Positions 1 to 20,007 of a stretch of DNA of 20,007 bases are shown piece after piece (position 1 is the first letter of the stretch; each line of letters opens with the position of its first letter). The position numbers and the translations under genes were made by a program. The stretch lies in IMG/VR virus record IMGVR_UViG_3300048908_000128, positions 1-20,007 of that record; one strand, given 5' to 3'. The notes below the pieces were generated by a model. It had not been told where the DNA came from and made no database searches. It was given only the letters and a program-made list of their open reading frames with translations. Source of the DNA: a virus.

Positions 1-23
1 CTGATCGGGTAAAAACGGGCCCG
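1..23. repeat. Terminal direct repeat, copy 1 (identical to 19985-20007). It marks closure of a circular or permuted 19,984-bp unit.
   Basis: ctgatcgggtaaaaacgggcccg is read at both window ends. Confidence 0.9.
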
Positions 24-3129: not shown

Positions 3130-3569
3130 CCTAGGATCGCTTTGATCTCGCGTCGCGGCATGACGAGCGCGCCGTGCTCGCCGAGCGGCTGCAGGCCGAA
3201 TTCGTCGCGGTGCCGCCGGATCGCGTGCACACTGATGCCCAGCGCCTCGGCGGCGATCTCGAGCGGCACGAAACCGGGCAGCGTGTCGACGAGCTGCGAG
3301 ATCGGCGGCCGCTGCTGCAGCATGCCGCTCGACGAGCGTTCGACGGCCGTCGACGGGGTCGGCACGGGCCCGCGGGCCGGCTGATCGGGTCGTTCGTAAT
3401 CGGCCGGGATCAGCCATGCCCCGTCGAGCTTCATCGCCCCCGGGATGCCGTCGGCTAGCCAGCGTTTCAGCGTCCGGTCACTGATCGGCCGGCCGGCTCG
3501 CGATCGCAGGTCAAGAAATCCGGCGAACGTGACGAGCTGTGCAGGGGTGTCATTAGGTGTATCTGTCAT
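3126..3569 (-). CDS. DNA-binding protein with two tandem excisionase/MerR-like winged-HTH domains, 147 aa
   Basis: N-terminal domain: VTFAGFLDLRSRAGRPISDRTLKRWLADGIPGAMKLDGAWLIP. C-terminal domain: FVPLEIAAEALGISVHAIRRHRDEFGLQPLGEHGALVMPRREIKAI. Both fit the excisionase-type HTH pattern. The ATG start is embedded in the GTCAC-repeat array. Confidence 0.75.
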   Translation of the reverse strand: MTDTPNDTPAQLVTFAGFLDLRSRAGRPISDRTLKRWLADGIPGAMKLDGAWLIPADYERPDQPARGPVPTPSTAVERSSSGMLQQRPPISQLVDTLPGFVPLEIAAEALGISVHAIRRHRDEFGLQPLGEHGALVMPRREIKAILG

Positions 3570-3627
3570 GTGACAACCCTACGTCACGTGACGTCACACT
3601 GTCACCCGTCGTCACGTGCCATGTCAC
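3565..3627. promoter_or_regulatory. Array of seven GTCAC/GTGAC pentamers, including the 14-bp perfect palindrome ACGTCACGTGACGT (3581-3594) and GTGACGTCAC (3588-3597). This is a candidate operator or binding-site cluster.
   Basis: Read directly. It fills the whole 32-nt gap between the stop of 3602..3805 and the start of the wHTH gene, and extends into both genes. Confidence 0.55.
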
Positions 3628-3805
3628 CCGCGGTCGGGTCGGGGGTCGCTATCAGCATCCAGCCGTGTTCCCATAGCGGGCCGTCTGTGAGGATCACGAG
3701 CCCGGGCCCGTATAGACGCTGCAGCGCCCGCACGAGATCTCGCATGCCGGCGGCCGGCATCGGGTATCTCAGCTTTGCGACGACGCGGGCGGGGTCGGTA
3801 ATCAC
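3602..3805 (-). CDS. Hypothetical 67-aa protein (start uncertain)
   Basis: GTG start with reasonable GC3. TACGAT (complement of 3812-3817) lies 6 nt upstream, consistent with a leaderless promoter. Confidence 0.5.
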   Translation of the reverse strand: MITDPARVVAKLRYPMPAAGMRDLVRALQRLYGPGLVILTDGPLWEHGWMLIATPDPTAGDMARDDG

Positions 3806-3811
3806 CCTCGG

Positions 3812-3817
3812 ATCGTA
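3812..3817 (-). promoter_or_regulatory. Candidate -10 hexamer TACGAT (TANNNT) for a leaderless transcript starting at the GTG at 3805
   Basis: There are 6 nt between the hexamer and the start codon, and no separate SD. Confidence 0.25.
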
Positions 3818-4300
3818 ACGTCGGGCGCCGGCGGCCGCTTATGTATACCGTCCCGTTGTGCATGCCGGGTAGCGGAGGGAGGGCAGAGGGCCGCTCCCCC
3901 CCCACAGGGGAGGGAGTGCACGCCGGTATAGCATCGGTCGGTATATCGGTATAGCCCCGGCAGGGCGAGCCTGCCGACGTCGGGATATGTGAGCGGCAGC
4001 CCCCTGATTAAAGAGGTGATAGCGACATAGACGCCCGTGCGGGTCGCGCTTCCGTCACTCGGCCCCTGCCGGCCGGTCAGCAATGCCGGCTCGAGGGGAG
4101 GGTTATCTGATCGCCCTCTAACGGTCAGTCACCCGGCCCCCGGGGCTACCCGCCCTAATGGGCGGGATCGTGGCCGGGCTTGTGTGAGCCAGTGTGAGTT
4201 TTTGCGAGTTGTTCTCTCGGCGATCCGTCGGCGTGTCGTCGCTTTCATCGCTCGGCGTATGTCTGTCGGGTCTGTTACGCTTACCCCTAGGTTTTCGTGC

Positions 4301-4338
4301 TGAAATCCAACCTAGGGCGGCCAATCGGCCGCCCTAGG
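4301..4338 (-). terminator. Strong hairpin CCTAGGGCGGCC-AATC-GGCCGCCCTAGG (4311-4338). It is a candidate terminator ending the long minus-strand structural operon.
   Basis: 12-bp perfect stem with a 4-nt loop. On the minus strand it is followed by TTGGATTTCA, and on the plus strand by TGTTTCC. Confidence 0.55.
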
Positions 4339-4511
4339 TGTTTCCGGCGGCGTGTCGACGAATCCAGATCTCGACGAGCCGGGCCCGCGGAAATCGACGT
4401 CACAGGATGCCCTGTGCCGCACGAAACCGGGTCGGGTGATAGTAGGACCGCTAAACGCCGGGGGACAGCGTCTAGCGGCCGCACAGGGCCGCTCACAGTG
4501 TGGGGCCGTTT

Positions 4512-4649
4512 TCACAGCAGCCCCCGGGCCGTCAGCAGCAGCACGAGACACGTGCCGGCGATCACGGCCGCGGCGACCATACCGACGACCGATGCGAGCA
4601 CGTAGGGACGCGGGTCACGACGCGCCCAATCCGGCCGGCGCGTCATCAT
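4512..4649 (-). CDS. Small membrane protein, 45 aa, one TM helix (possible holin-like or membrane protein)
   Basis: MMTRRPDWARRDPRPYVLASVVGMVAAAVIAGTCLVLLLTARGLL has a basic N-terminus followed by a hydrophobic helix. ATGATGA overlap with the upstream stop. Confidence 0.55.
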   Translation of the reverse strand: MMTRRPDWARRDPRPYVLASVVGMVAAAVIAGTCLVLLLTARGLL

Positions 4650-4912
4650 TGCCGCCCGACCTGCAGCACTTCGCGCACGCCGGCGCCGGCGCCGTACTCG
4701 GCAGCACAGAATGCGCACGCGAGCACGTCATGCGTCGCGAGCAGCCTGTGCAGCTCGAGCTGCACCCGCCGGCAGCACGGCAGACACACGTCGACGGCCG
4801 TGCTGCAGCAGCGCGTCGAGATCCGCCGGCGGGCCGGCCGGCCGCAGCCGATGCACGCGACGACGTCGTCGACGGCCGCCGGCGATCGCTGCTCGAGAAT
4901 GGCTCTCATCAT
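4646..4912 (-). CDS. Cys-rich (three CxxC) putative zinc-binding protein, 88 aa
   Basis: Contains CIGC, CLPCC and CAFC motifs. ATGA overlap with the upstream gene. Confidence 0.6.
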   Translation of the reverse strand: MMRAILEQRSPAAVDDVVACIGCGRPARRRISTRCCSTAVDVCLPCCRRVQLELHRLLATHDVLACAFCAAEYGAGAGVREVLQVGRQ

Positions 4913-5091
4913 TCGATCCCCTCTATCACCCCGTCGTCGACGGGCACGGCCGGCCGGGTGACGACGTCGCCGCCCCGGGTCACGACCCGCCCGTCGTCAC
5001 GATTCCCGCAGCCATGCACGCACCAACCGGATACCGGGTCGTACCTGTGCCGCTTGCCCGGCCGGCATTCCCGCGCCCAGCGCGCCGGCAT
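4909..5091 (-). CDS. Hypothetical 60-aa protein (Cys/His containing)
   Basis: ATG preceded by GGGGTGAG. The 3' end overlaps the next start (ATGA). Confidence 0.5.
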   Translation of the reverse strand: MPARWARECRPGKRHRYDPVSGWCVHGCGNRDDGRVVTRGGDVVTRPAVPVDDGVIEGIE

Positions 5092-5513: not shown

Positions 5514-6314
5514 TTACCGATTCACGACGAGATCGACGAGCACGGCGAGATCGATTCCGCTGATCGCGACGAGCAGCGACACGCCCGCCAGCAGCCAGCG
5601 CGATAGGTCACGGGTCGGCGGGGTCGGCGGGCCCGGCTCGAGCGCGTCGACGTCGTCGCGGATTGCGTGCGATAGCGCGTTCGTCGACGCCATGAAACCG
5701 TCTGCAGAAAACCGGATCTGATTGCCGGCGTCATCCCGCTCGAGGGTGCCGTCGGCATTCTGCGCGGCGATCGGCTGCGCCCAGACAGCATGCCGGAAAA
5801 ACGGCCAGTCGTCATGCCCGGGCGGCGGCGACGTCGTATCCCGGTAGAACTCAAAAATTGAATCTTTGATGAACTGTCGATCATTGCCCGAGAGTGGCAC
5901 GTCATCCTCCAAAACATAGAGCGTAAAGTCGACGGTCGGCGTTACCCATGCGGGCCCGATCCATAATGTCGTGTGAACATGGGCGCCGGTTCCCCAATCG
6001 TTACCATTCGCCGACGCGCCCGATGCGGCGATTCCCTGCCCTTGACTGATTCGCTGCCCGACGCTTACCCACACGCTCGCCAAATGCAGATACCGGACCG
6101 TATTGCCGTCGTCGAGTGCGAGTGTCAGATATCGACCGGTCGCCGCGCCATTCGTTGTTTTCAGGTCGACGACGACGCCGGCGGCCGCGGCGAGGATCGT
6201 CGTGCCGTATCCGCATGCATAATCTGTGCCCGGCTCGGACGACGGCGGTTTACGATCCTTATGATCCTGCCATGACGACGAGATCGGCGCGTCGACGGGT
6301 GCAATATAGGGCAC
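5514..6314 (-). CDS. Endolysin, M23 (LytM-type) metallopeptidase with a C-terminal transmembrane helix
   Basis: GTDYACGYGTTILAAAAGVVV, VRYLHLAS and GAHVHTTLW match the HxxxD / HxH M23 signature region. The C-terminus LLAGVSLLVAISGIDLAVLVDLVV is hydrophobic. GTG start with AAGGGGTGAG upstream. Confidence 0.8.
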   Translation of the reverse strand: MPYIAPVDAPISSSWQDHKDRKPPSSEPGTDYACGYGTTILAAAAGVVVDLKTTNGAATGRYLTLALDDGNTVRYLHLASVWVSVGQRISQGQGIAASGASANGNDWGTGAHVHTTLWIGPAWVTPTVDFTLYVLEDDVPLSGNDRQFIKDSIFEFYRDTTSPPPGHDDWPFFRHAVWAQPIAAQNADGTLERDDAGNQIRFSADGFMASTNALSHAIRDDVDALEPGPPTPPTRDLSRWLLAGVSLLVAISGIDLAVLVDLVVNR

Positions 6315-6327
6315 GTGATCTCACCCC

Positions 6328-6582
6328 TTACGGCATCGGCTGCACAGCGGCCAGAATCATTTCATCCGTAATGACCGACGGGTCATTGCCGGGCGACGGG
6401 TTCCCGGCAGCGACGGCCGATTCCCACGCCGGCGCCCAACCGGGGCTAGACGCGAGATCCCATCTGTGATCGGATACCCACGATTCATACGGCTTAGTTT
6501 TCGTTTCCTCGGCCGCGGCCGCCACGCATCGGTTAAACAGCGCCGAGTCGTATGCGATTTCTGCAATCGTGCTGTAAGACAT
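6328..6582 (-). CDS. Hypothetical 84-aa protein (the internal ATG is chosen over the longest ORF)
   Basis: The ATG at 6582 is preceded by AAGAGGAGAG. The longer ORF would overlap the upstream gene. Confidence 0.65.
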   Translation of the reverse strand: MSYSTIAEIAYDSALFNRCVAAAAEETKTKPYESWVSDHRWDLASSPGWAPAWESAVAAGNPSPGNDPSVITDEMILAAVQPMP

Positions 6583-6605
6583 TCGTTCTCTCCTCTTTTC
6601 GTGTT

Positions 6606-7376
6606 TCAGCTCGCGACGAGCCCGGGCCCGAGATATTGCACTGAGAATTCGCCGCTCGCGCGGCCGCCCGCCGGATTCGCGCCGAATGCAAACGGGTTTG
6701 GGCCGGCGGCGTACAGCCAACGCAGCGTTTGCCCGGCGCCGAGCGGCACGTCGCTCGCCATAACGGGCCCGACCGATCCGTATGACGCATCGGTCTGATA
6801 CTTGCCGAGTGCGAGCGGCGTCGACGTGCCCTCATCGGCGACCAGGTATGCGATCGCCGCATTCGATTGTGCCGTCGTGCCGCCCTGCAGATTCATGAAT
6901 ATGCGATAACGCCCGGCACGGCCGACCGTGACGCGACCCGTCGACGAATTAAACGAGAGATCGGTCGTATTCCGCCAGCCATAGGTGCTCGGGACCGGCG
7001 TCCAAAGGGTATAGGTCGCGCCGGGTGCGAGCGATTGGACGCCGTTACTTATCATATCGATTCGCGGCAGGTTGCCGGCGACCGGATACCAACCGGCCGC
7101 ACCGTATTCGAGCCCGGGCACGGTCAGCCCGGCCGTGCCGGCGGCCGCGTAATAGGACTCAAACCAGCCAAATTGTGTATTCCACCACTGAATACGCTTA
7201 TTGGCGAGTGCCGCCTGTGATGCGGCGTCTGCAGGCACGCCGTGTTTCGCGTCACGGTTCGCCGATGTGCCGATAAATTCGATCGCGAGGGCGAGATTCT
7301 TAATCGCATCGGCGCCGGCCGCTACCGGTTCTGTTGGCAGCGGGTAGGGCAATCCGCCCGGGGTTGTGCTAGGCAC
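6606..7376 (-). CDS. Minor tail protein / putative receptor-binding (fibre-like) protein, 256 aa
   Basis: The N-terminus GGLPYPLPTEPVAAGADAIKNLALAIE is the motif common at the N-termini of actinophage minor tail proteins. It lies downstream of the tape measure and has GGAGGG upstream of the GTG. Confidence 0.65.
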   Translation of the reverse strand: MPSTTPGGLPYPLPTEPVAAGADAIKNLALAIEFIGTSANRDAKHGVPADAASQAALANKRIQWWNTQFGWFESYYAAAGTAGLTVPGLEYGAAGWYPVAGNLPRIDMISNGVQSLAPGATYTLWTPVPSTYGWRNTTDLSFNSSTGRVTVGRAGRYRIFMNLQGGTTAQSNAAIAYLVADEGTSTPLALGKYQTDASYGSVGPVMASDVPLGAGQTLRWLYAAGPNPFAFGANPAGGRASGEFSVQYLGPGLVAS

Positions 7377-7382
7377 TGTTTT

Positions 7383-9311
7383 CTATCCCTCCGTTGTAAC
7401 GCCGATGAGATCGGACCAGCTCACGTCCGAATCAAATTCGTTCCATGACCATGTGTTATCCAGATCGACCCACGGGACCGACCCGCCGAGCCCGAGCCCG
7501 GGTGACAGGGTGAGGGCGAGCGACCATGCGCCGGCGTTTGCGCCGTCGGTCACGGCGTGCCGGTATTCGTAATGCCCGCCCTCTATGTAGCCGACGAGCC
7601 CCGGCGGCAGGGGTGCCCAATTGGGGATATTGTCGATTCGCAGCGGGTGCCCGATCCGCACCGTGCCGTCGAGCAGATCCAGTGTCGTTTTCGTTTCGCC
7701 GGCGTCGACGACCGCCTCGAAACCCTGATCCCATTCGACGCCCGACAGTCGCCATGCACTATCGCCGACCCGGGCCAGCAGCCGGGCCGCGACGTCGGCC
7801 GCGTCAGATTCGGCCTGTAGCTGCGTCGACAACGAAATCCCGCGGGTGCCGTACTCGGCCTCGAGCTGCGCGTCGACGACGAGATAATGCCGCTCAGTCG
7901 GGGCCGGTTTGCCCTGATCGTCGACGGTCTGCTCGAGCCATGTGACGTCGGCACGGGTGCCGATATCGGCGACCGATTGCACCCATCGCAGCGGGGATAG
8001 CAGCACGTTCGCCGCGTCGAGCACGATCGCGTCGGCCGCGGTTGACGCCGGGATCACCTGCACGAGCCCCGTGTCGGGATCTTGATACAGCACGAATAGC
8101 GCCGAGCGGTTGTCGGGATCTTCGAGCCAGTAATAGGGCCCGTGGGTCGCGTGCACGGCCGGCCATGCGACGGCGGCCGCCGATGCGGCCAGCTCGGCGA
8201 CGAGCCCGGCCGCCGGCTGCGCGTCGACGTCGCGATAGGTAACCGGGATCGTGGCGATCGTCGGGTCGATAATCGCGGTGACGTCGCCGCCGGCGAGGGT
8301 CAGTATCCGGTTCACCCGGTCGGCGAGCGGTTCCACCTGCCAGGGCTGATCGCCGATGCGATCGTTCTGCAGGTCGGCCGGGAATCCGCGGGCGGTCACG
8401 TCGGCGACGAGCGTGCCGCCCTCGAGCCCGACGTCGTAATGCGCCTCGAGATCGGTGATCCGGCCGGCGAATGCGACGACCGTGCGCACGATCTCGCCCG
8501 ATGGGGCGGTTACGGCCACGTCGTCGACGTTGCCGCCCCGATAGTCGGCCCACGTGCCCGGGGTGCCCGCCCACGTGCCCGGGATCTGCTGCCATGCCGG
8601 CGCGGTGATCGCGACCCGCACCCCGACCCACCGATCCGACGTCGACGGGAACAATTGCCATGACACCGTCTGCCAGCCGCCCGTGCCGACGATGTGCTGC
8701 ACGGGCCCGTCAACCGACGACGCACCCGCCGGCGAGAAGAATGCGAGGGCCTGCAGCGTGCACACGGCCGACAACGGCGCCCACACGGCGACCGTGATTG
8801 GCCACGGCAGCCCGAGATCGGCGTCGGTATGGGGTATGTGATCCCACGCGGCCGGATTTTGCGTGTCGATCGCGGCCGGCGCGACGACGACGGCACCCTC
8901 GGCCGCGGTGTCGGTAATCGACAGGGCGAGAGACTGCGCGCCGGTCGACGCCCGCGCGGCCGTGACGGTCGCGGCCGCGTTCTGCGCGATCACGTTCGCC
9001 GGTTTCGAGCCGACCGCGGTCGCCTCGAAACCCCCGTCTGTGATCGTCGGCAGGCTCGGGTCGATATGTTCCATGCCGGCGGCCCGGATCTCGAGCGCCC
9101 GGCCGGCGGCGAGCTGCGCGATCAGGTCATGCCCGCCCCGCTGCGCGATCTGCAGCGACGCACTATCGGCGTCGGGCTGATCGACAACCGTCTGCCGCCC
9201 CCAGTCGATCCCGAGTCCCATCATGACGACCAGATCGCCGGCGTGAAAGCTCGTCGAGCTATCGGCGACGGGCACCCCGTCGACGAGCACCGTGACCGCG
9301 GCCGCACTCAC
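7383..9311 (-). CDS. Minor tail protein (Dit/Tal-position protein), 642 aa
   Basis: It lies immediately downstream of the tape measure, with a GTGA overlap. Large beta-rich protein. It contains the in-frame repeat PGTWAGT/PGTWADY. Confidence 0.65.
   Translation of the reverse strand: MSAAAVTVLVDGVPVADSSTSFHAGDLVVMMGLGIDWGRQTVVDQPDADSASLQIAQRGGHDLIAQLAAGRALEIRAAGMEHIDPSLPTITDGGFEATAVGSKPANVIAQNAAATVTAARASTGAQSLALSITDTAAEGAVVVAPAAIDTQNPAAWDHIPHTDADLGLPWPITVAVWAPLSAVCTLQALAFFSPAGASSVDGPVQHIVGTGGWQTVSWQLFPSTSDRWVGVRVAITAPAWQQIPGTWAGTPGTWADYRGGNVDDVAVTAPSGEIVRTVVAFAGRITDLEAHYDVGLEGGTLVADVTARGFPADLQNDRIGDQPWQVEPLADRVNRILTLAGGDVTAIIDPTIATIPVTYRDVDAQPAAGLVAELAASAAAVAWPAVHATHGPYYWLEDPDNRSALFVLYQDPDTGLVQVIPASTAADAIVLDAANVLLSPLRWVQSVADIGTRADVTWLEQTVDDQGKPAPTERHYLVVDAQLEAEYGTRGISLSTQLQAESDAADVAARLLARVGDSAWRLSGVEWDQGFEAVVDAGETKTTLDLLDGTVRIGHPLRIDNIPNWAPLPPGLVGYIEGGHYEYRHAVTDGANAGAWSLALTLSPGLGLGGSVPWVDLDNTWSWNEFDSDVSWSDLIGVTTEG
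8548..8583 (-). repeat. 15-bp exact direct repeat GCCCACGTGCCCGGG at 8548-8562 and 8569-8583 (21-nt period, in frame)
   Basis: Read directly. It encodes the 7-aa repeat PGTWAGT/PGTWADY in the minor tail protein. Confidence 0.8.
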
Positions 9312-11431
9312 GGGTAGCTCACCTGCCCGCCGAGAATCACGCCACGCTCACGCCGGGCGAGCCCCTGCAGCTCGGCCCGGATCGCGCGGGCGATCGCGTC
9401 GCCGCCCCCGAATGGCGCCTGCACCGTGATCTGAATAGGTGACGGCGCGGCGATCCTCGGCGCGGCCGCGCTGCGATACCCGGCGGCCGCATAGACGGCC
9501 GGCGACAGGGTGCCGGCGGCGAATGTCGACGACGTCGACGACACGGCGAACGTCGATTTTCCGCCCCCGGTCAGATCCGATAGCCATTTCGGCGGTTGCG
9601 GCCACTGAATTTTCGACAACCATTTGACGACGCCGGCGATCGCGTCGGCGATCGCGTTAAAGATAGGGGCGAGCATGCCGAGCGCCCCCGAAATCAATTT
9701 CGACGTGATCGTGAGCAGCCCGCCGAGCAGCGGGCCGGCGAGCTGCAGCAGCGGGGCGATCAGATTAAGAATCGGGCCGAGCAGCGCGGCGATAAGCGCG
9801 ATCAATTGTGCAATGGGCGGCAGAATGGGAATAACAGCCTTAATGATCTGCACAAATGCCGGGATTAGTGGCGTAATTGCCGTGACCAATAGATTTACGA
9901 TAATCTTCGCCAATTGCACGACAATGGGCAATAGTGGCTGAATGGCGCCAATGACCAATAGCACCACTGTCGCGAGGGGCGGCAGCAATTGGGTAATGAG
10001 ATCGGTAATTACGGGCAATAGCGGCATAAATGCGTCGACCAATTGCGTGACAATGGGCACGAGCATTGTTATTACGGTCGCGACGATCGGCAGCACGGCC
10101 TGCGCGAGCTGCGCGATCAGCGGCACGAGCGCCTGCAGCACTGTCGAGAGGGCGCCGGCGAAAACGGCGATCAGCGGGGCGGCCGCTTCGACGACGCTCG
10201 ACAGGGCGGTCGTGATCGCGCCGAGCGCGGTCGACAGCACGGGCAGCAGCGGGGCGAGCGCTTTCAGCGCCTGTTGCATGACGCCGCCGAAAACAGCCTG
10301 CAGCTCGGGCGACGTCGCGACGAGCCCGGCGATCGCGGCGATCACGATGCCGATCGGCCCGGACAGCCCGCCCAGCAGCTCGCCGATCAGCGGGATACCT
10401 TTAAGCGCGCCTGTCGACATGGCAGCGAACGCGCCGGTGATCGTCGCGAGGGCCGGCGCGAGATTGGAGATCCCCGCGGTGAGCTGATCGACGTTCACCC
10501 CTTTGAGCTTGCCGAGCACGGCGTCGAGAATGCCGCCGATCCCGCCGAGCCCGCCGGCGAACGCGCCCGTAAATTTCGACACGAGCCCGGATATCAACGG
10601 CTCGAGGGTGCGCAGGATATCGGCGATCTGATTCGCCCACGTGACAGCCATGCCCCCGCCGGATTTCGACACAAATGGCTCGGCGAGGGCCGACCCGATA
10701 TCCCGCATCGCCCCTTTGATCCGGTCGGTCGCGCCGGCCCATGTCTGTTTGACGTTGTCGGCGGCGTGCGCGAATCGTGTTTCCATGCCGGCGGCCAGCG
10801 CGTCGAGCGCCGTGCCGGCATCCAGCGATCCCTTACTGATCGCATCTTTGATCTGCGCGCCGGTCATGCCCATCTGCGAGCCGATCAGCGACGCCGCATC
10901 GATCCCGCGCTGCGCGAATTGCATGAGATCCTGACCGGTGATTTTCCCGGCCGCCGAGATCTGCGACATGATGAGCGAAATCTCTTTGATCTGCTGCGCC
11001 GACCCGCCGGTCGCCGCGACGGCATCCTGAATCGCGCCGAGATACGGGATCACTTTGCTCGACGCGATCCCGAATCCGAGCATCTGCTGCGTCGCTTCGA
11101 TAAACGCCTGTTTCGGAAACGGCGATTTCTTGCTAAACGCGGTGATCTGATCCATCATTGCCGCGGCCGCATCCGCCGACCCGAGAATCGTTTTAAACGC
11201 GGCCGTGGCGGTCTGATTCAATTGGTTGTATGCGACGCCTGATTTAAACACGCTCGCGACGAATATGCCGCCGGCGGTCGCGGCCGCGGTCCATTTCGTT
11301 GCGATCCCGGTCATGACGGCGTTCGCGCCGGCGCCGAATTTGCCGAGCGCGCTATCGGACGACCCTAGTGCTTTCGCGAGATCCGAATTATTCCCGAGAA
11401 TGTTGACGACGAGATTCGCCGGCCTGCCCAT
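9308..11431 (-). CDS. Tape measure protein, 707 aa
   Basis: Long Ala/Gly/Leu/Ile-rich helical protein with repetitive hydrophobic PL(L/I)P segments, placed directly after the chaperone frameshift pair. Confidence 0.9.
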   Translation of the reverse strand: MGRPANLVVNILGNNSDLAKALGSSDSALGKFGAGANAVMTGIATKWTAAATAGGIFVASVFKSGVAYNQLNQTATAAFKTILGSADAAAAMMDQITAFSKKSPFPKQAFIEATQQMLGFGIASSKVIPYLGAIQDAVAATGGSAQQIKEISLIMSQISAAGKITGQDLMQFAQRGIDAASLIGSQMGMTGAQIKDAISKGSLDAGTALDALAAGMETRFAHAADNVKQTWAGATDRIKGAMRDIGSALAEPFVSKSGGGMAVTWANQIADILRTLEPLISGLVSKFTGAFAGGLGGIGGILDAVLGKLKGVNVDQLTAGISNLAPALATITGAFAAMSTGALKGIPLIGELLGGLSGPIGIVIAAIAGLVATSPELQAVFGGVMQQALKALAPLLPVLSTALGAITTALSSVVEAAAPLIAVFAGALSTVLQALVPLIAQLAQAVLPIVATVITMLVPIVTQLVDAFMPLLPVITDLITQLLPPLATVVLLVIGAIQPLLPIVVQLAKIIVNLLVTAITPLIPAFVQIIKAVIPILPPIAQLIALIAALLGPILNLIAPLLQLAGPLLGGLLTITSKLISGALGMLAPIFNAIADAIAGVVKWLSKIQWPQPPKWLSDLTGGGKSTFAVSSTSSTFAAGTLSPAVYAAAGYRSAAAPRIAAPSPIQITVQAPFGGGDAIARAIRAELQGLARRERGVILGGQVSYP

Positions 11432-11435
11432 ATGG

Positions 11436-12058
11436 TCACCCCCCCTCGGCTGTATGTGTGCGATCGATCGCCGTCATCATTGCCTGCAGCCGATCCAGCG
11501 GCAGGTTTTCGATCACGTCGACGGTTACGTGATAGGCGAGCCCGATAACGGCGAGATCGGCGAGCCGGTCGCGGTGTGCGTCGGCGAGGGCCCGCCGGCG
11601 CCAATCACTTTTGGGCGGCGTCGGGCCAGCTCGAGCACGAGCGTCGCGAGATCGTCGAATGGGATCGCGAATGCCTGATCGATCGACAACGGGTGATCGC
11701 CGTGCAGCCGGGACGCCCAGACCATAAACACGAGCTGGCCGGCCTGCGTGCGGGTCAGCTCGTCGAGGGTGATGCCGGCGGACAGCTCGAATTGCATGAT
11801 CTGCCGGCTCGTCAGCGCTGCGCGCAGCTCGTCGGCCAGCGTGTCGACGTCGACCGGGTCGACGACGTCGTCGCCCGGCTCGTCGGGGGTGACAGCGTCA
11901 CGTGACGGGACGCTGTCACGGGACGCTGTCACGTTCTCGGGTGCCGTCACGGGCCATGTCACGTCGTCGAGCCCGGGCAGCGGGTCGCCGTAGCCGGCCG
12001 GCTCGTCGACGACGTCGTCGTCGGGCCCGGTCACGTCAGGGGTGATGAATGTGTTCAT
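11436..12058 (-). CDS. Tail assembly chaperone -1 frameshift product (GT-like), about 207 aa. The frame shifts at 11609-11615.
   Basis: After the slip the -1 frame reads SDWRRRALADAHRDRLADLAVIGLAYHVTVDVIENLPLDRLQAMMTAIDRTHTAEGG and stops at TGA 11436-11438, 4 nt before the tape-measure ATG. Confidence 0.65.
11525..12058 (-). CDS. Tail assembly chaperone (G-like, zero-frame product), 177 aa, with an acidic low-complexity N-terminal half
   Basis: Located between the tail genes and the tape measure. The ATG at 12058 forms an ATGA overlap. It contains the slippery heptamer CCCAAAA. Confidence 0.7.
   Translation of the reverse strand: MNTFITPDVTGPDDDVVDEPAGYGDPLPGLDDVTWPVTAPENVTASRDSVPSRDAVTPDEPGDDVVDPVDVDTLADELRAALTSRQIMQFELSAGITLDELTRTQAGQLVFMVWASRLHGDHPLSIDQAFAIPFDDLATLVLELARRRPKVIGAGGPSPTHTATGSPISPLSGSPIT
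11609..11615 (-). promoter_or_regulatory. Programmed -1 ribosomal frameshift slippery heptamer C_CCA_AAA
   Basis: The minus strand reads cgC CCA AAA Gtg in the chaperone zero frame, a perfect X_XXY_YYZ pattern. Confidence 0.65.
11889..11965. repeat. Nucleotide-level repeat cluster inside the chaperone gene. It comprises the inverted copy GTGACAGCGTC (11889-11899), the palindrome CGTCACGTGACG (11896-11907), an exact 13-nt tandem repeat GGGACGCTGTCAC x2 (11907-11932) and further GTCAC pentamers.
   Basis: Read directly. The 13-nt period is not a multiple of 3, so the two copies are translated in different frames (VTASRDSVPSRDAVT). Confidence 0.8.
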
Positions 12059-12489
12059 TTCGTTGCCGGCGTCGCCGCCCCAATCCGATCGATGATTTTC
12101 TGCAGGTCGTCGACGTAGAACTCGAGCCATATCTGCTCGGATCGCTGCGCGGCGTCGACGATGAAAAACGACCCGCGAAACGACCCGCCCCGCCACCCTT
12201 TGCGGGGATTGGGGCGGCCCGGCCAGCCGTAATGGTTATTGCCGGCGTAGGGCACGGCCGCGCTGCCGGCCCGCACGACCGCCCGACCTACCTGCCGCGT
12301 GCCGCGCACGGTGCCCTGCAGGTTCCCCGTGTCGCCGACCGGGGCGAGCCCCCGGGCGACGTCGGCGACGAATGCCGACACGCGCGCGTTTGCCGTTCTC
12401 AGGTCGGCCGTGTCGAGCTGCGCGGCTGAGAGTGCTGATCTCAGCTCGCGCAGCCCGACCACGTAGTAGCCGGCGTTCTGTGTCGACAT
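12055..12489 (-). CDS. HK97 gp10-family head-tail/neck protein, 144 aa
   Basis: ARGLAPVGDTGNLQGTVRGT...VRAGSAAVPYAGNNHYGWP fits the gp10-family pattern (P..TG.L..S...YA...E/H.G). Confidence 0.65.
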   Translation of the reverse strand: MSTQNAGYYVVGLRELRSALSAAQLDTADLRTANARVSAFVADVARGLAPVGDTGNLQGTVRGTRQVGRAVVRAGSAAVPYAGNNHYGWPGRPNPRKGWRGGSFRGSFFIVDAAQRSEQIWLEFYVDDLQKIIDRIGAATPATK

Positions 12490-15111: not shown

Positions 15112-15684
15112 TTAGCGTGCTGTGCGCAGCGCGTCTAGTCTCGCCCGGGCGGCATCCAGCAGCGGGGTTGCCGGCGGGGTAAGCATTTCGTGATCGCGGG
15201 CGACGAGCACGCCGGCGCCGGCGTATTGCGGCGACCGGGTCGCGGCGACGTGATTCAGGCCGGCCTGCATCCTGATCGTGACGTCGCGGCCGCCCCGTGT
15301 TTCCCGGCGCGACTTGTATGCGCGGGCGCCGACCGACCAACCGGTCAGCTCGCCCGAGCGTGCTTCTTCGGCTTGTGGGTGCGACCGGTTCAACCGGAAT
15401 GCCGGATACAGGCCGTCGTCGAATTCCTCGAGCGCGACGCATCGGCCGAGATACCGGTCGCCGTCGTCGCCGGCGTGCCCGAGCATGAGATTAATCCACA
15501 AGCCCCCTTTGGACACGTCGCGGGCGAACGCGCCCCGCTCGAATTCCTCGAAATAGAACGTTTCGCCGTCGTCGCTGACGGCCGTTTCGACGCCGTAGGG
15601 CACGGCGAGCCCGCGCACGGTCCAACCGTCGCCGATCGGCTCGAGCGGCACGGGTAGGGCACGGGTGATAAACAGCTCAGACAT
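15112..15684 (-). CDS. Prohead maturation protease, HK97 (S78) family, 190 aa
   Basis: Contains LMLGHAGD (His), GWSVGA (Ser) and LAVPYGV... elements and lies between the portal and capsid genes. The ATG at 15684 with a GGAG SD is preferred over the TTG at 15699. Confidence 0.8.
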   Translation of the reverse strand: MSELFITRALPVPLEPIGDGWTVRGLAVPYGVETAVSDDGETFYFEEFERGAFARDVSKGGLWINLMLGHAGDDGDRYLGRCVALEEFDDGLYPAFRLNRSHPQAEEARSGELTGWSVGARAYKSRRETRGGRDVTIRMQAGLNHVAATRSPQYAGAGVLVARDHEMLTPPATPLLDAARARLDALRTAR

Positions 15685-18850: not shown

Positions 18851-18906
18851 GCCGGCCGGCGCCCGGGCGAATTGTGGATAACTCGAGAGTCAGCCGGCCG
18901 AAACGA

Positions 18907-19984: not shown

Positions 19985-20007
19985 CTGATCGGGTAAAAAC
20001 GGGCCCG
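19985..20007. repeat. Terminal direct repeat, copy 2 (identical to 1-23)
   Basis: Exact 23-nt identity with the window start. Confidence 0.9.

Follow-up and report, generated by a model that had tools for sequence, protein, structure and literature searches.

The non-coding junction between the late and early operons of an uncultivated 20-kb phage carries a conserved boxA-hairpin-boxB module

The DNA analysed here, called the window throughout, is one whole JGI contig of 20,007 nucleotides (nt), IMG/VR virus record IMGVR_UViG_3300048908_000128. Our subject is a block at positions 3806-4511 that separates a late operon, encoding structural and lysis proteins, from an early operon, encoding DNA-binding proteins. 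The block proved to be a truly non-coding spacer, the longest such stretch of the genome. It contains a module of about 70 nt that is kept across a family of related phages and is the sole alignable part of the corresponding gaps. With moderate confidence, we read the block as the junction of two co-directional transcription units in a small, lytic actinophage from soil, composed of terminators, the conserved module, and an early promoter/operator region.

Results

The block lacks coding capacity

The block and the two genes that delimit it are the following.

3806-4511, minus strand as the sense of both neighbours: non-coding junction from the late (structural/lysis) to the early (DNA-binding) operon, by composition of open reading frames (ORFs), codon usage and searches
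4512-4697, minus strand: last late gene, encoding a small single-pass membrane protein of 61-68 amino acids (aa); gene call on L001, homologues in L002 and L010
3602-3805, minus strand: orf67, the first early gene, with a GTG start at 3805; by composition, codon score and homologues

Loci with L numbers are other metagenomic contigs. Coding potential was scanned with a codon-usage log-odds model trained on the long genes of the genome. The coding signal was nil over about 3784-4427, and no other stretch of the genome of this kind was as long. All ORFs inside the block were flat in their GC contents at the three codon positions (GC1/GC2/GC3, e.g. 0.65/0.65/0.62), as opposed to about 0.72/0.52/0.85 in real genes. 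On an identical Logan contig, genes had been called independently, and there too 4511-3761 was empty; no ORF of the gap had a Pfam match. The best-scoring ORF, of 93 aa (3802-4083, minus strand; its stop codon overlaps the orf67 start in GTGA), reached a weak codon score of 5-9 bits and a GC3 of only 0.72. For this ORF, an exhaustive HMMER search of 1.84 billion representatives returned two long repetitive proteins and no genuine homologues. A protein-coding gene with the codon bias of the other genes and with homologues was not found in the block, and the statement of an earlier note, made from the letters alone, that the block has no credible ORF was confirmed by each of these analyses. In addition, a search for transfer RNAs (tRNAs) and transfer-messenger RNAs with ARAGORN found none, and an exact 31-mer taken from the block had no match in IMG/VR.

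The lower boundary at 3805 is set by orf67. This is a real gene, because its composition is of the coding type (GC1/2/3 of 0.74/0.51/0.78; codon log-odds, 17-23 bits) and it aligns from residue 2 with homologues in L010 and L021. At the other boundary, the last late gene ends with the stop codon TGA at 4514-4512. The block had also been described as AT-richer than its surroundings. Its GC content is indeed slightly lower than that of the genome (0.65 versus 0.675), with a lowest 50-nt value of 0.48, but the AT-richest parts of the genome lie elsewhere, including the 50-nt minimum of 0.36.

The corresponding gaps of relatives

The helix-turn-helix (HTH) protein of the early operon had one relative, with 45% identity, on the 2-kb contig L002, the layout of which equals that of the window (membrane protein, 636-nt gap, small ORF, HTH gene). 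A search with the minor tail protein led to a family of soil-metagenome contigs of about 15-25 kb; protein-seeded searches of IMG/VR with HTH147 or the minor tail protein alone gave nothing. According to the gene calls of other pipelines, a gap follows directly after the lysis genes in L011 (933 nt), L012 (596 nt), and L014 (457 nt). In L010, L015, and L006, the same place holds a reverse-strand tyrosine integrase cassette. The contig closest by tail protein, L081 (65% identity), stops short of the junction.

Comparison of the block using blastn with the gaps of L002, L010, L011, L012, L014, and L015 and with all 157 loci yielded nothing significant. Only the gaps of L012 and L014 shared sequence with each other (67 nt), and a six-frame comparison among the gaps found no common peptide except the translated module.

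A module of two boxes and a covarying hairpin

The module was spotted first when the gaps were read side by side. In the window, it comprises the following elements.

4348-4357, minus strand: boxA-1, CGACACGCCG, one of two exact copies in the genome
4310-4339, no strand assigned: hairpin 2, with a perfect stem of 13 base pairs (bp), ACCTAGGGCGGCC/GGCCGCCCTAGGT (arms 4310-4322 and 4327-4339), and a 4-nt loop; folding energy -28.8 kcal/mol
4295-4309, minus strand: boxB-like tail TTGGATTTCAGCACG, from the module table
4229-4238, minus strand: boxA-2, the second exact CGACACGCCG, 119 nt downstream of boxA-1

The order of the elements is boxA, 7-13 A-rich nt, a perfect hairpin of 11-14 bp, and a boxB resembling TTGTnAAGyT. 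Both exact genome copies of CGACACGCCG lie in the block. A boxA with the position and orientation of boxA-1 is present in L002, L003, L011, L012, L014, L101, L106, and L130. A second boxA follows about 100-150 nt downstream and was counted in seven relatives. Its orientation is direct in the window, L002, L012, L014, and L130, whereas L011 and L003 have it inverted. In the relatives, boxB reads TTGTTAAGCT, TTGTCTAAGTT, GGTTTCAAGCT and similar; the copy in the window is the least typical one and is closest in look to that of L101.

The distribution of the module was determined in two ways. A covariance model built from L011, L012, and L014 also found the module in L003/L045, L130, L101 and, weakly, L024; in a search within the block, its top match was 4294-4366 on the minus strand (12 bits, E = 0.005). 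A pattern search of 118 non-redundant loci for boxA with at most one mismatch plus a perfect stem of at least 10 bp gave 10 matches and added L106. All 10 were in gene sense, and neither the other strand nor shuffled sequences had a match. Two of the 10 (L127 and L083, with 10-bp stems, upstream of a tail gene) look like chance. Taking both searches together, the module is present in at least nine distinct phages.

A MAFFT alignment of eight modules was structurally inconsistent, and covariation was counted by a script in register from the stem base. In these eight phages, 87 of 88 stem cells were Watson-Crick pairs, 32 cells were double changes, and all 11 pairs showed compensatory changes. 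The stem sequence is thus different in every phage while the pairing is kept. Perfect stems of at least 11 bp arose in 3 of 20,000 shuffles. Homologous regions of related phages had been suggested for covariation analysis in the earlier note; hairpin 2 does covary, but the rest of the gap could not be aligned. Because eight of nine stems contain neither a wobble nor a mismatch, the sole imperfect one being that of L014, they would suit a structure that forms either in DNA or on both strands, as a two-way terminator does. With an A-rich run before it and a tail containing T after it, hairpin 2 resembles a bidirectional terminator.

In L003 and L130, the module lies after an HNH gene and before early genes (p299, HTH). 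Because it follows the HNH gene there, the module marks a transcription-unit boundary and not the lysis genes as such.

Several other assignments were tried. A tie of the module to the homologue of p299 (phrog_5931) or to the HTH_17 gene was rejected since the association was inconsistent. Pairing between the boxA and boxB flanks was seen in L012 only and was likewise discarded. A dif/lox-like recombination site has a similar architecture, but the module occurs in lytic genomes without a recombinase and its sequences differ in each phage, and this candidate was also rejected. When boxB was tried as a -35 or extended -10 element, its spacings to downstream TANNNT hexamers were inconsistent among the phages. 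As a side observation, a 225-aa gene call of the database in L003/L045 (L003 11584-12261, minus strand) overlaps both a forward HNH homologue (11491-11793) and the module (11996-12068); this reverse gene call is probably spurious.

A hairpin at the end of the late operon

Two further pairings lie between the late operon and the module.

4446-4480, minus strand: hairpin 1, with a 13-bp stem and a 9-nt loop; inverted repeat, fold, local z of about -3 on the minus strand only
4409-4489, minus strand: 12-nt long-range pairing of 4478-4489 with 4409-4420, enclosing hairpin 1; inverted repeat, alignment with L002

Hairpin 1 begins 31 nt past the stop codon of the late operon. Two G.U wobbles on the minus strand correspond to A.C mismatches on the plus strand. 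Because the G.U pairs fit the minus strand only, the best reading of hairpin 1 is a hairpin formed in the late RNA, where it would act as a terminator or a stabiliser of the 3' end. A comparable hairpin directly follows the last late gene in L011, L012, and L014. The long-range pairing around hairpin 1 is followed by ATCCT-N5-6-GTCGATTTC (N6 in the window), and L002 has, at the equivalent place, an 8-bp helix and the same downstream words. These two sequences give a weak hint that the long-range helix may be shared by the window and L002.

Repeats and a promoter candidate before the early genes

Two features were identified at the early side of the block.

3844-3953, no strand assigned: repeat cluster upstream of the first early gene, with genome-unique repeats
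3812-3817, minus strand: TACGAT, a -10-like hexamer of the form TANNNT, 6 nt before the GTG at 3805

The heptamer CGGTATA occurs four times within 110 nt (plus strand 3924, 3939, and 3947; minus strand 3850-3844). These are all of its copies in the genome, where 1.05 are expected. GTGCAYGCCGG is found at 3858 and 3916, and GGAGGGAG at 3874 and 3909 on either side of a C8 run (3896-3903); neither has another plus-strand copy in the genome. The repeats of 3844-3953 are candidate operator or promoter-associated sites, to which a protein may bind. The sense strand of the block contains three TANNNT hexamers, of which TACGAT alone lies in the distal 490 nt. Its location 6 nt before the homology-supported GTG makes TACGAT a candidate promoter from which a leaderless early mRNA would start; in Actinobacteria, a spacing of 6 nt between the -10 element and the start codon is expected for such mRNAs. 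L011 and L012 have in common an extended -10-like box, TGCTAGSCT, about 55-60 nt before the first early gene, and because they share it, early promoters would seem to lie at the distal end of the relatives' gaps.

Another set of repeats was noticed outside the block. The perfect palindrome GTGACGTCAC has four copies only, at 665, 725, 751, and 3588, which lie in clusters of GTCAC/GTGAC half-sites (663-760 and 3570-3630; a further cluster is at 11876-11933). One cluster is directly upstream of the start of the HTH_17 gene (3569), and another surrounds a 30-bp perfect inverted repeat (663-692/707-736) between convergent genes. At the place equivalent to the window's half-site cluster, L002 has ATGACA repeats. 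To judge by their sequence, the palindromes and half-site clusters look like the operator set of a phage regulator.

Folding and repeat content of the block

Folding z-scores were calculated for 150-nt windows along the genome, the background being -0.7 +/- 1.6, with dozens of coding windows below -2.5. In the block, only 4201-4425 (z of about -5, both strands) and 4351-4575 (z of about -3, minus strand only) were outliers, and 3751-4200 folded like the genome background. The fold of the whole block had a z-score of -3.6 (minus strand) or -4.1 (plus strand), each from only 20 shuffles. Because the other windows of the block are at background, these values reflect the hairpins at 4480-4446 and 4339-4310. 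The description of the block as highly structured is therefore correct for the two hairpins, but not for 3751-4200.

The block had also been called dense in repeats. It exceeds its own shuffles (p of about 0.01-0.02), but 52 of 55 windows of the same size equal or exceed it in direct 8-mer repeats, and by k-mer counts it is less repetitive than most coding windows. The individual repeats and hairpins listed in the earlier note were all recovered within 1 nt of their given positions, with corrections for GGAGGGAG, which starts at 3874 and not at 3875, and for a T5 run, which is at 4199-4203. One of these elements is a small hairpin.

4149-4166, no strand assigned: 7-bp hairpin CCCGCCC-TAAT-GGGCGGG

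The pairing around it (4132-4138/4171-4177) is imperfect, and the small hairpin is neither kept in relatives nor above the folding background. The strongest features, namely hairpin 4310-4339, the two copies of CGACACGCCG, and the four copies of CGGTATA, were absent from that list.

The genome and its closest long relative

The first and last 23 nt of the window (1-23 and 19985-20007) are identical. Therefore, the window is a circular assembly and a complete phage genome of about 19,984 bp, as the earlier description as a 20-kb genome had implied. Its GC content is 67.5%. A map built from GC3 frame analysis together with Pfam and PHROGs is that of a high-GC siphovirus, with nearly all genes on the minus strand. 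Genes recognised besides the two that border the block are listed below.

18558-16978, minus strand: large terminase candidate, late
16963-15677, minus strand: portal, late
14979-13714, minus strand: capsid, late
11431-9308, minus strand: tape measure, late
9311-7383, minus strand: minor tail protein of 642 aa, late
6314-5514, minus strand: M23 peptidase lysin, late
3569-3126, minus strand: HTH_17 DNA-binding protein, early
2818-2249, minus strand: HNH endonuclease, early
2229-1330, minus strand: phrog_5931 protein (p299) of 299 aa, early
1290-955, minus strand: Lsr2, early

The M23 lysin gene is followed by genes for four small proteins, the membrane protein (stop at 4512) being the last; the small late proteins upstream of the block are membrane proteins or rich in cysteine. 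A gene for a 92-aa protein lies between the HTH_17 and HNH genes. The flanks are as originally stated. M23 peptidase, tail, and small proteins are encoded upstream, and HTH_17, HNH, and Lsr2 downstream. Pfam and PHROGs revealed no polymerase, primase, helicase, or Rep-type protein encoded by the genome. The Lsr2 protein has both the dimerisation and the DNA-binding domain (Pfam E = 5e-19); Lsr2 is a nucleoid-associated silencer typical of Actinobacteria, and its presence supports an actinobacterial host.

No DNA match to 50,697 phage records was found, either by megablast of the whole window or by blastn of 3400-4950. Compared with the portals of isolated Microbacterium, Curtobacterium, and Mycobacterium phages, that of the window reaches no more than 28% identity. 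Positions 9600-10200, inside the tape-measure gene, are among the stretches of lowest GC content (0.56 in 400-nt windows), and GC and AT skew are both strongly positive there.

The closest long relative, L010, is temperate. After its lysis genes, on the reverse strand, it carries a tyrosine integrase and an HTH_3 repressor gene (5602-7430). Within the 3' part of this repressor gene, a stretch at about 6853-6877 (GGGTTCAAGTCCCAGGGGGTGCA) resembles a tRNA T-arm and acceptor end. The cassette layout resembles the integration-dependent immunity system of mycobacteriophage BPs (PMC3694055, PMC4557955). A boxA-like site and an 11-bp palindrome precede an uncalled ORF of 67 aa with an excisionase-type HTH (7218-7421). 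The gene caller also left a "gap" of 527 nt (8786-9312) before the HTH_17 homologue of L010. It has 69% GC and reads throughout as a protein-like frame, and is probably a gene that was overlooked, not the counterpart of the block.

Discussion

A probable tandem junction of two transcription units

The earlier note had offered a regulatory switch region with divergent promoters as one candidate identity of the block. A regulatory region is indeed the best-supported reading, but the divergent arrangement is not found; the block is flanked by minus-strand genes on either side, and the upstream gene has its end, not its start, at the block. Because both flanking operons are on the minus strand, the arrangement would be that of a tandem terminator-promoter junction. 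We envisage that the 15-kb late transcript, covering packaging, structural, and lysis genes, would end in hairpin 1 (4480-4446) and hairpin 2 (4339-4310). The most likely role of hairpin 2 would be to halt transcription in both directions and so shield the late operon from the region downstream. A protein that modulates either this stop or transcription into the early genes would be the most likely ligand of the paired boxA sites. The remaining 500 nt or so would evolve fast, with the distal end serving as the early promoter/operator region, to which the four CGGTATA copies, the GGAGGGAG/C8 set, and the -10 hexamer TACGAT, placed for a leaderless start at GTG 3805, would belong.

Like intrinsic and bidirectional terminators, the two hairpins are stable GC-rich stem-loops at the 3' end of a transcription unit, where they directly follow the last gene of a long operon. 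Hairpin 2 further resembles bidirectional terminators as a palindrome with an A-rich and a T-containing side, at a conserved position and with a covarying stem. In contrast to intrinsic terminators, neither hairpin has a U-tract of about 7-9 nt right after the stem; relatives reach 7 U in 10 nt on the antisense side only. Ordinary terminators also lack an attached conserved and duplicated box such as CGACACGCCG.

The layout is also reminiscent of the nut sites of phage lambda (boxA, spacer, boxB hairpin) and of the put RNAs of HK022. The module likewise consists of a conserved linear box, a spacer (about 8-13 nt), and a hairpin in a fixed orientation on the transcript. However, its stems are longer, 11-14 bp, and its loops (GATT, GCG, GAT, ACTAG, and others) vary in sequence and length from phage to phage. 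It lies at the end of the late operon and not after an early promoter, and no N- or Q-like protein was identified. An antitermination site of the nut type is thus not what we found.

A third comparison concerns the motifs of actinobacteriophage clusters, such as the 18-bp motif of the Microbacterium EC phages, the inverted repeats of EG, and the SAS/ESAS-like motifs of EF (PMC7302621). Like these, the module is short, conserved within a group, intergenic, and fixed in orientation relative to transcription. The cluster motifs occur 5-12 times per genome beside start codons, whereas the motif of the module has two copies, both at a single junction, and is coupled with a hairpin of variable sequence. 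In summary, the block is an intergenic control region of an ordinary kind with a lineage-specific conserved motif, and not a new class of element.

Several observations weigh against the interpretation as a terminator-promoter junction. A consensus scan of 3400-4800 found no canonical terminator and no sigma-70-type promoter. Of 10 nt in the tail of either hairpin, only 3-4 are U; intrinsic termination by mycobacterial RNA polymerase requires a U-tract (PMC3993855). The assignment of the -10 element rests on a hexamer of low information content. No early protein strictly co-occurs with the module, and a partner of boxA was not found. Finally, the persistence of 300-800 nt of unconserved DNA in a 20-kb genome is not accounted for.

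Alternative explanations

The first alternative is that only the module and the promoter are functional and that the remainder is DNA that has decayed or serves as stuffer, either tolerated or required to reach a packaging length, at the place where temperate relatives carry an integrase/repressor cassette. It would fit that the cassettes of L010, L015, and L006 occupy precisely the place behind the lysis genes, the convergent units being separated by a hairpin, and that a perfect palindromic hairpin with A- and T-rich flanks has the look of a terminator of convergent genes. Moreover, the gaps of the lytic-looking relatives are unalignable and very variable in length (457-933 nt), and the middle of the block has no folding excess or coding signal. 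However, when 28 proteins from L010, L006, and L015 (integrases, repressors, and their neighbours) were compared with the block using tblastn, the best E value was 0.16, and ARAGORN found neither a tRNA nor a tRNA-like core; a decayed attP-int-rep cassette was rejected on these grounds. The genome-unique repeats and the duplicated boxA argue for selection on at least a third of the block, and small phage genomes rarely keep junk. We therefore consider functionless filler unlikely as an explanation of most of the block.

Still less probable, in our view, is an origin of replication, in which the two boxA copies, the four CGGTATA copies, the palindromes, and the mildly AT-rich stretch 4257-4306 would serve the host machinery, possibly with priming by transcription. 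Such an origin would suit a genome without detected replication proteins. The block is the largest non-coding region of this genome and its repeated sites are unique to it; its 50-nt GC minimum of 0.48 is within the lowest 1.7% of the genome, and the cumulative GC skew has its global maximum (0.54) at 4201-4600. However, the skew curve is noisy, with a near-equal second maximum of 0.49 near 15,300. No DnaA box (TTGTCCACA-type, at most one mismatch) and no strong AT-rich unwinding element were found in the block. Like iteron and ColE1-type origins, the block is non-coding and has short repeated sites and hairpins in a genome lacking replication genes, but its repeats are few, 7-10 nt long, and irregularly spaced, unlike iterons of 17-22 bp, and no recognisable initiator gene adjoins it. 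The combination of at least three iterons, DnaA boxes, and an AT-rich element was not present, and conservation among the relatives is limited to about 70 nt. The sole 9-mer of the genome with at most one mismatch to TTGTCCACA is TTATCCACA, at 18873-18881 on the minus strand, upstream of the terminase gene.

A related possibility, which we regard as equally doubtful, is that boxA, palindrome, boxB, and second boxA together form the core of a family-wide cis element other than a terminator, either the origin of actinophages of about 20 kb without replication proteins of their own, perhaps transcription-primed, or the 3' end of a plus-strand antisense RNA controlling the late-to-early junction. 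If true, this would account for the way in which phages that lack replication or regulatory genes carry out these functions.

The least probable of these alternatives is a gene for a non-coding RNA. One variant is a plus-strand antisense RNA of a few hundred nt that ends at hairpin 2 and a U-rich tail (4310-4345); another is a long structured leader or 3' untranslated region that switches by pairing of the G8 run with the two CUCCCUCC copies. Even taken together, we judge the two very unlikely. The antisense variant draws on the relatives, in which the tail after hairpin 2 is U-richer on the strand opposite the genes (UCUUUUGUCU in L012, 7 of 10), and on the imperfect stem of L014, which has G.U on the opposite strand and A.C on the sense strand. 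The C8/G8 run can pair with either GGAGGGAG copy, and the z-scores of the whole-block fold are low on both strands. However, those scores come from only 20 shuffles and are explained by the two hairpins, with the rest of the block at background. Outside the module, neither sequence nor structure is conserved, covariation being confined to one hairpin (about 30 of 706 nt), and a convincing plus-strand promoter was not found. A search of the whole window against Rfam 15 at the gathering score gave no match, and at E <= 10 the region 3550-4750 yielded only chance-level matches to microRNAs and small nucleolar RNAs (14-20 bits). The block shares with the Rfam RNAs ROOL, GOLLD, and HEARO that it is several hundred nt of non-coding DNA in a phage genome, but it has no covariance-model match at E <= 10 and no conserved structure beyond its two hairpins. 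The earlier suggestion of a sizeable structured non-coding RNA was thus not upheld: no Rfam family matches, the folding excess amounts to two hairpins, and the gaps are unalignable beyond about 70 nt.

Implications

Read as a tandem terminator-promoter junction, the block shows how a family of uncultivated soil actinophages of about 20 kb, which has no sequenced close relative among isolated phages, may separate late from early transcription. The module of about 70 nt could serve as a portable terminator or insulator for high-GC hosts, and it provides a handle for finding the protein that would bind CGACACGCCG.

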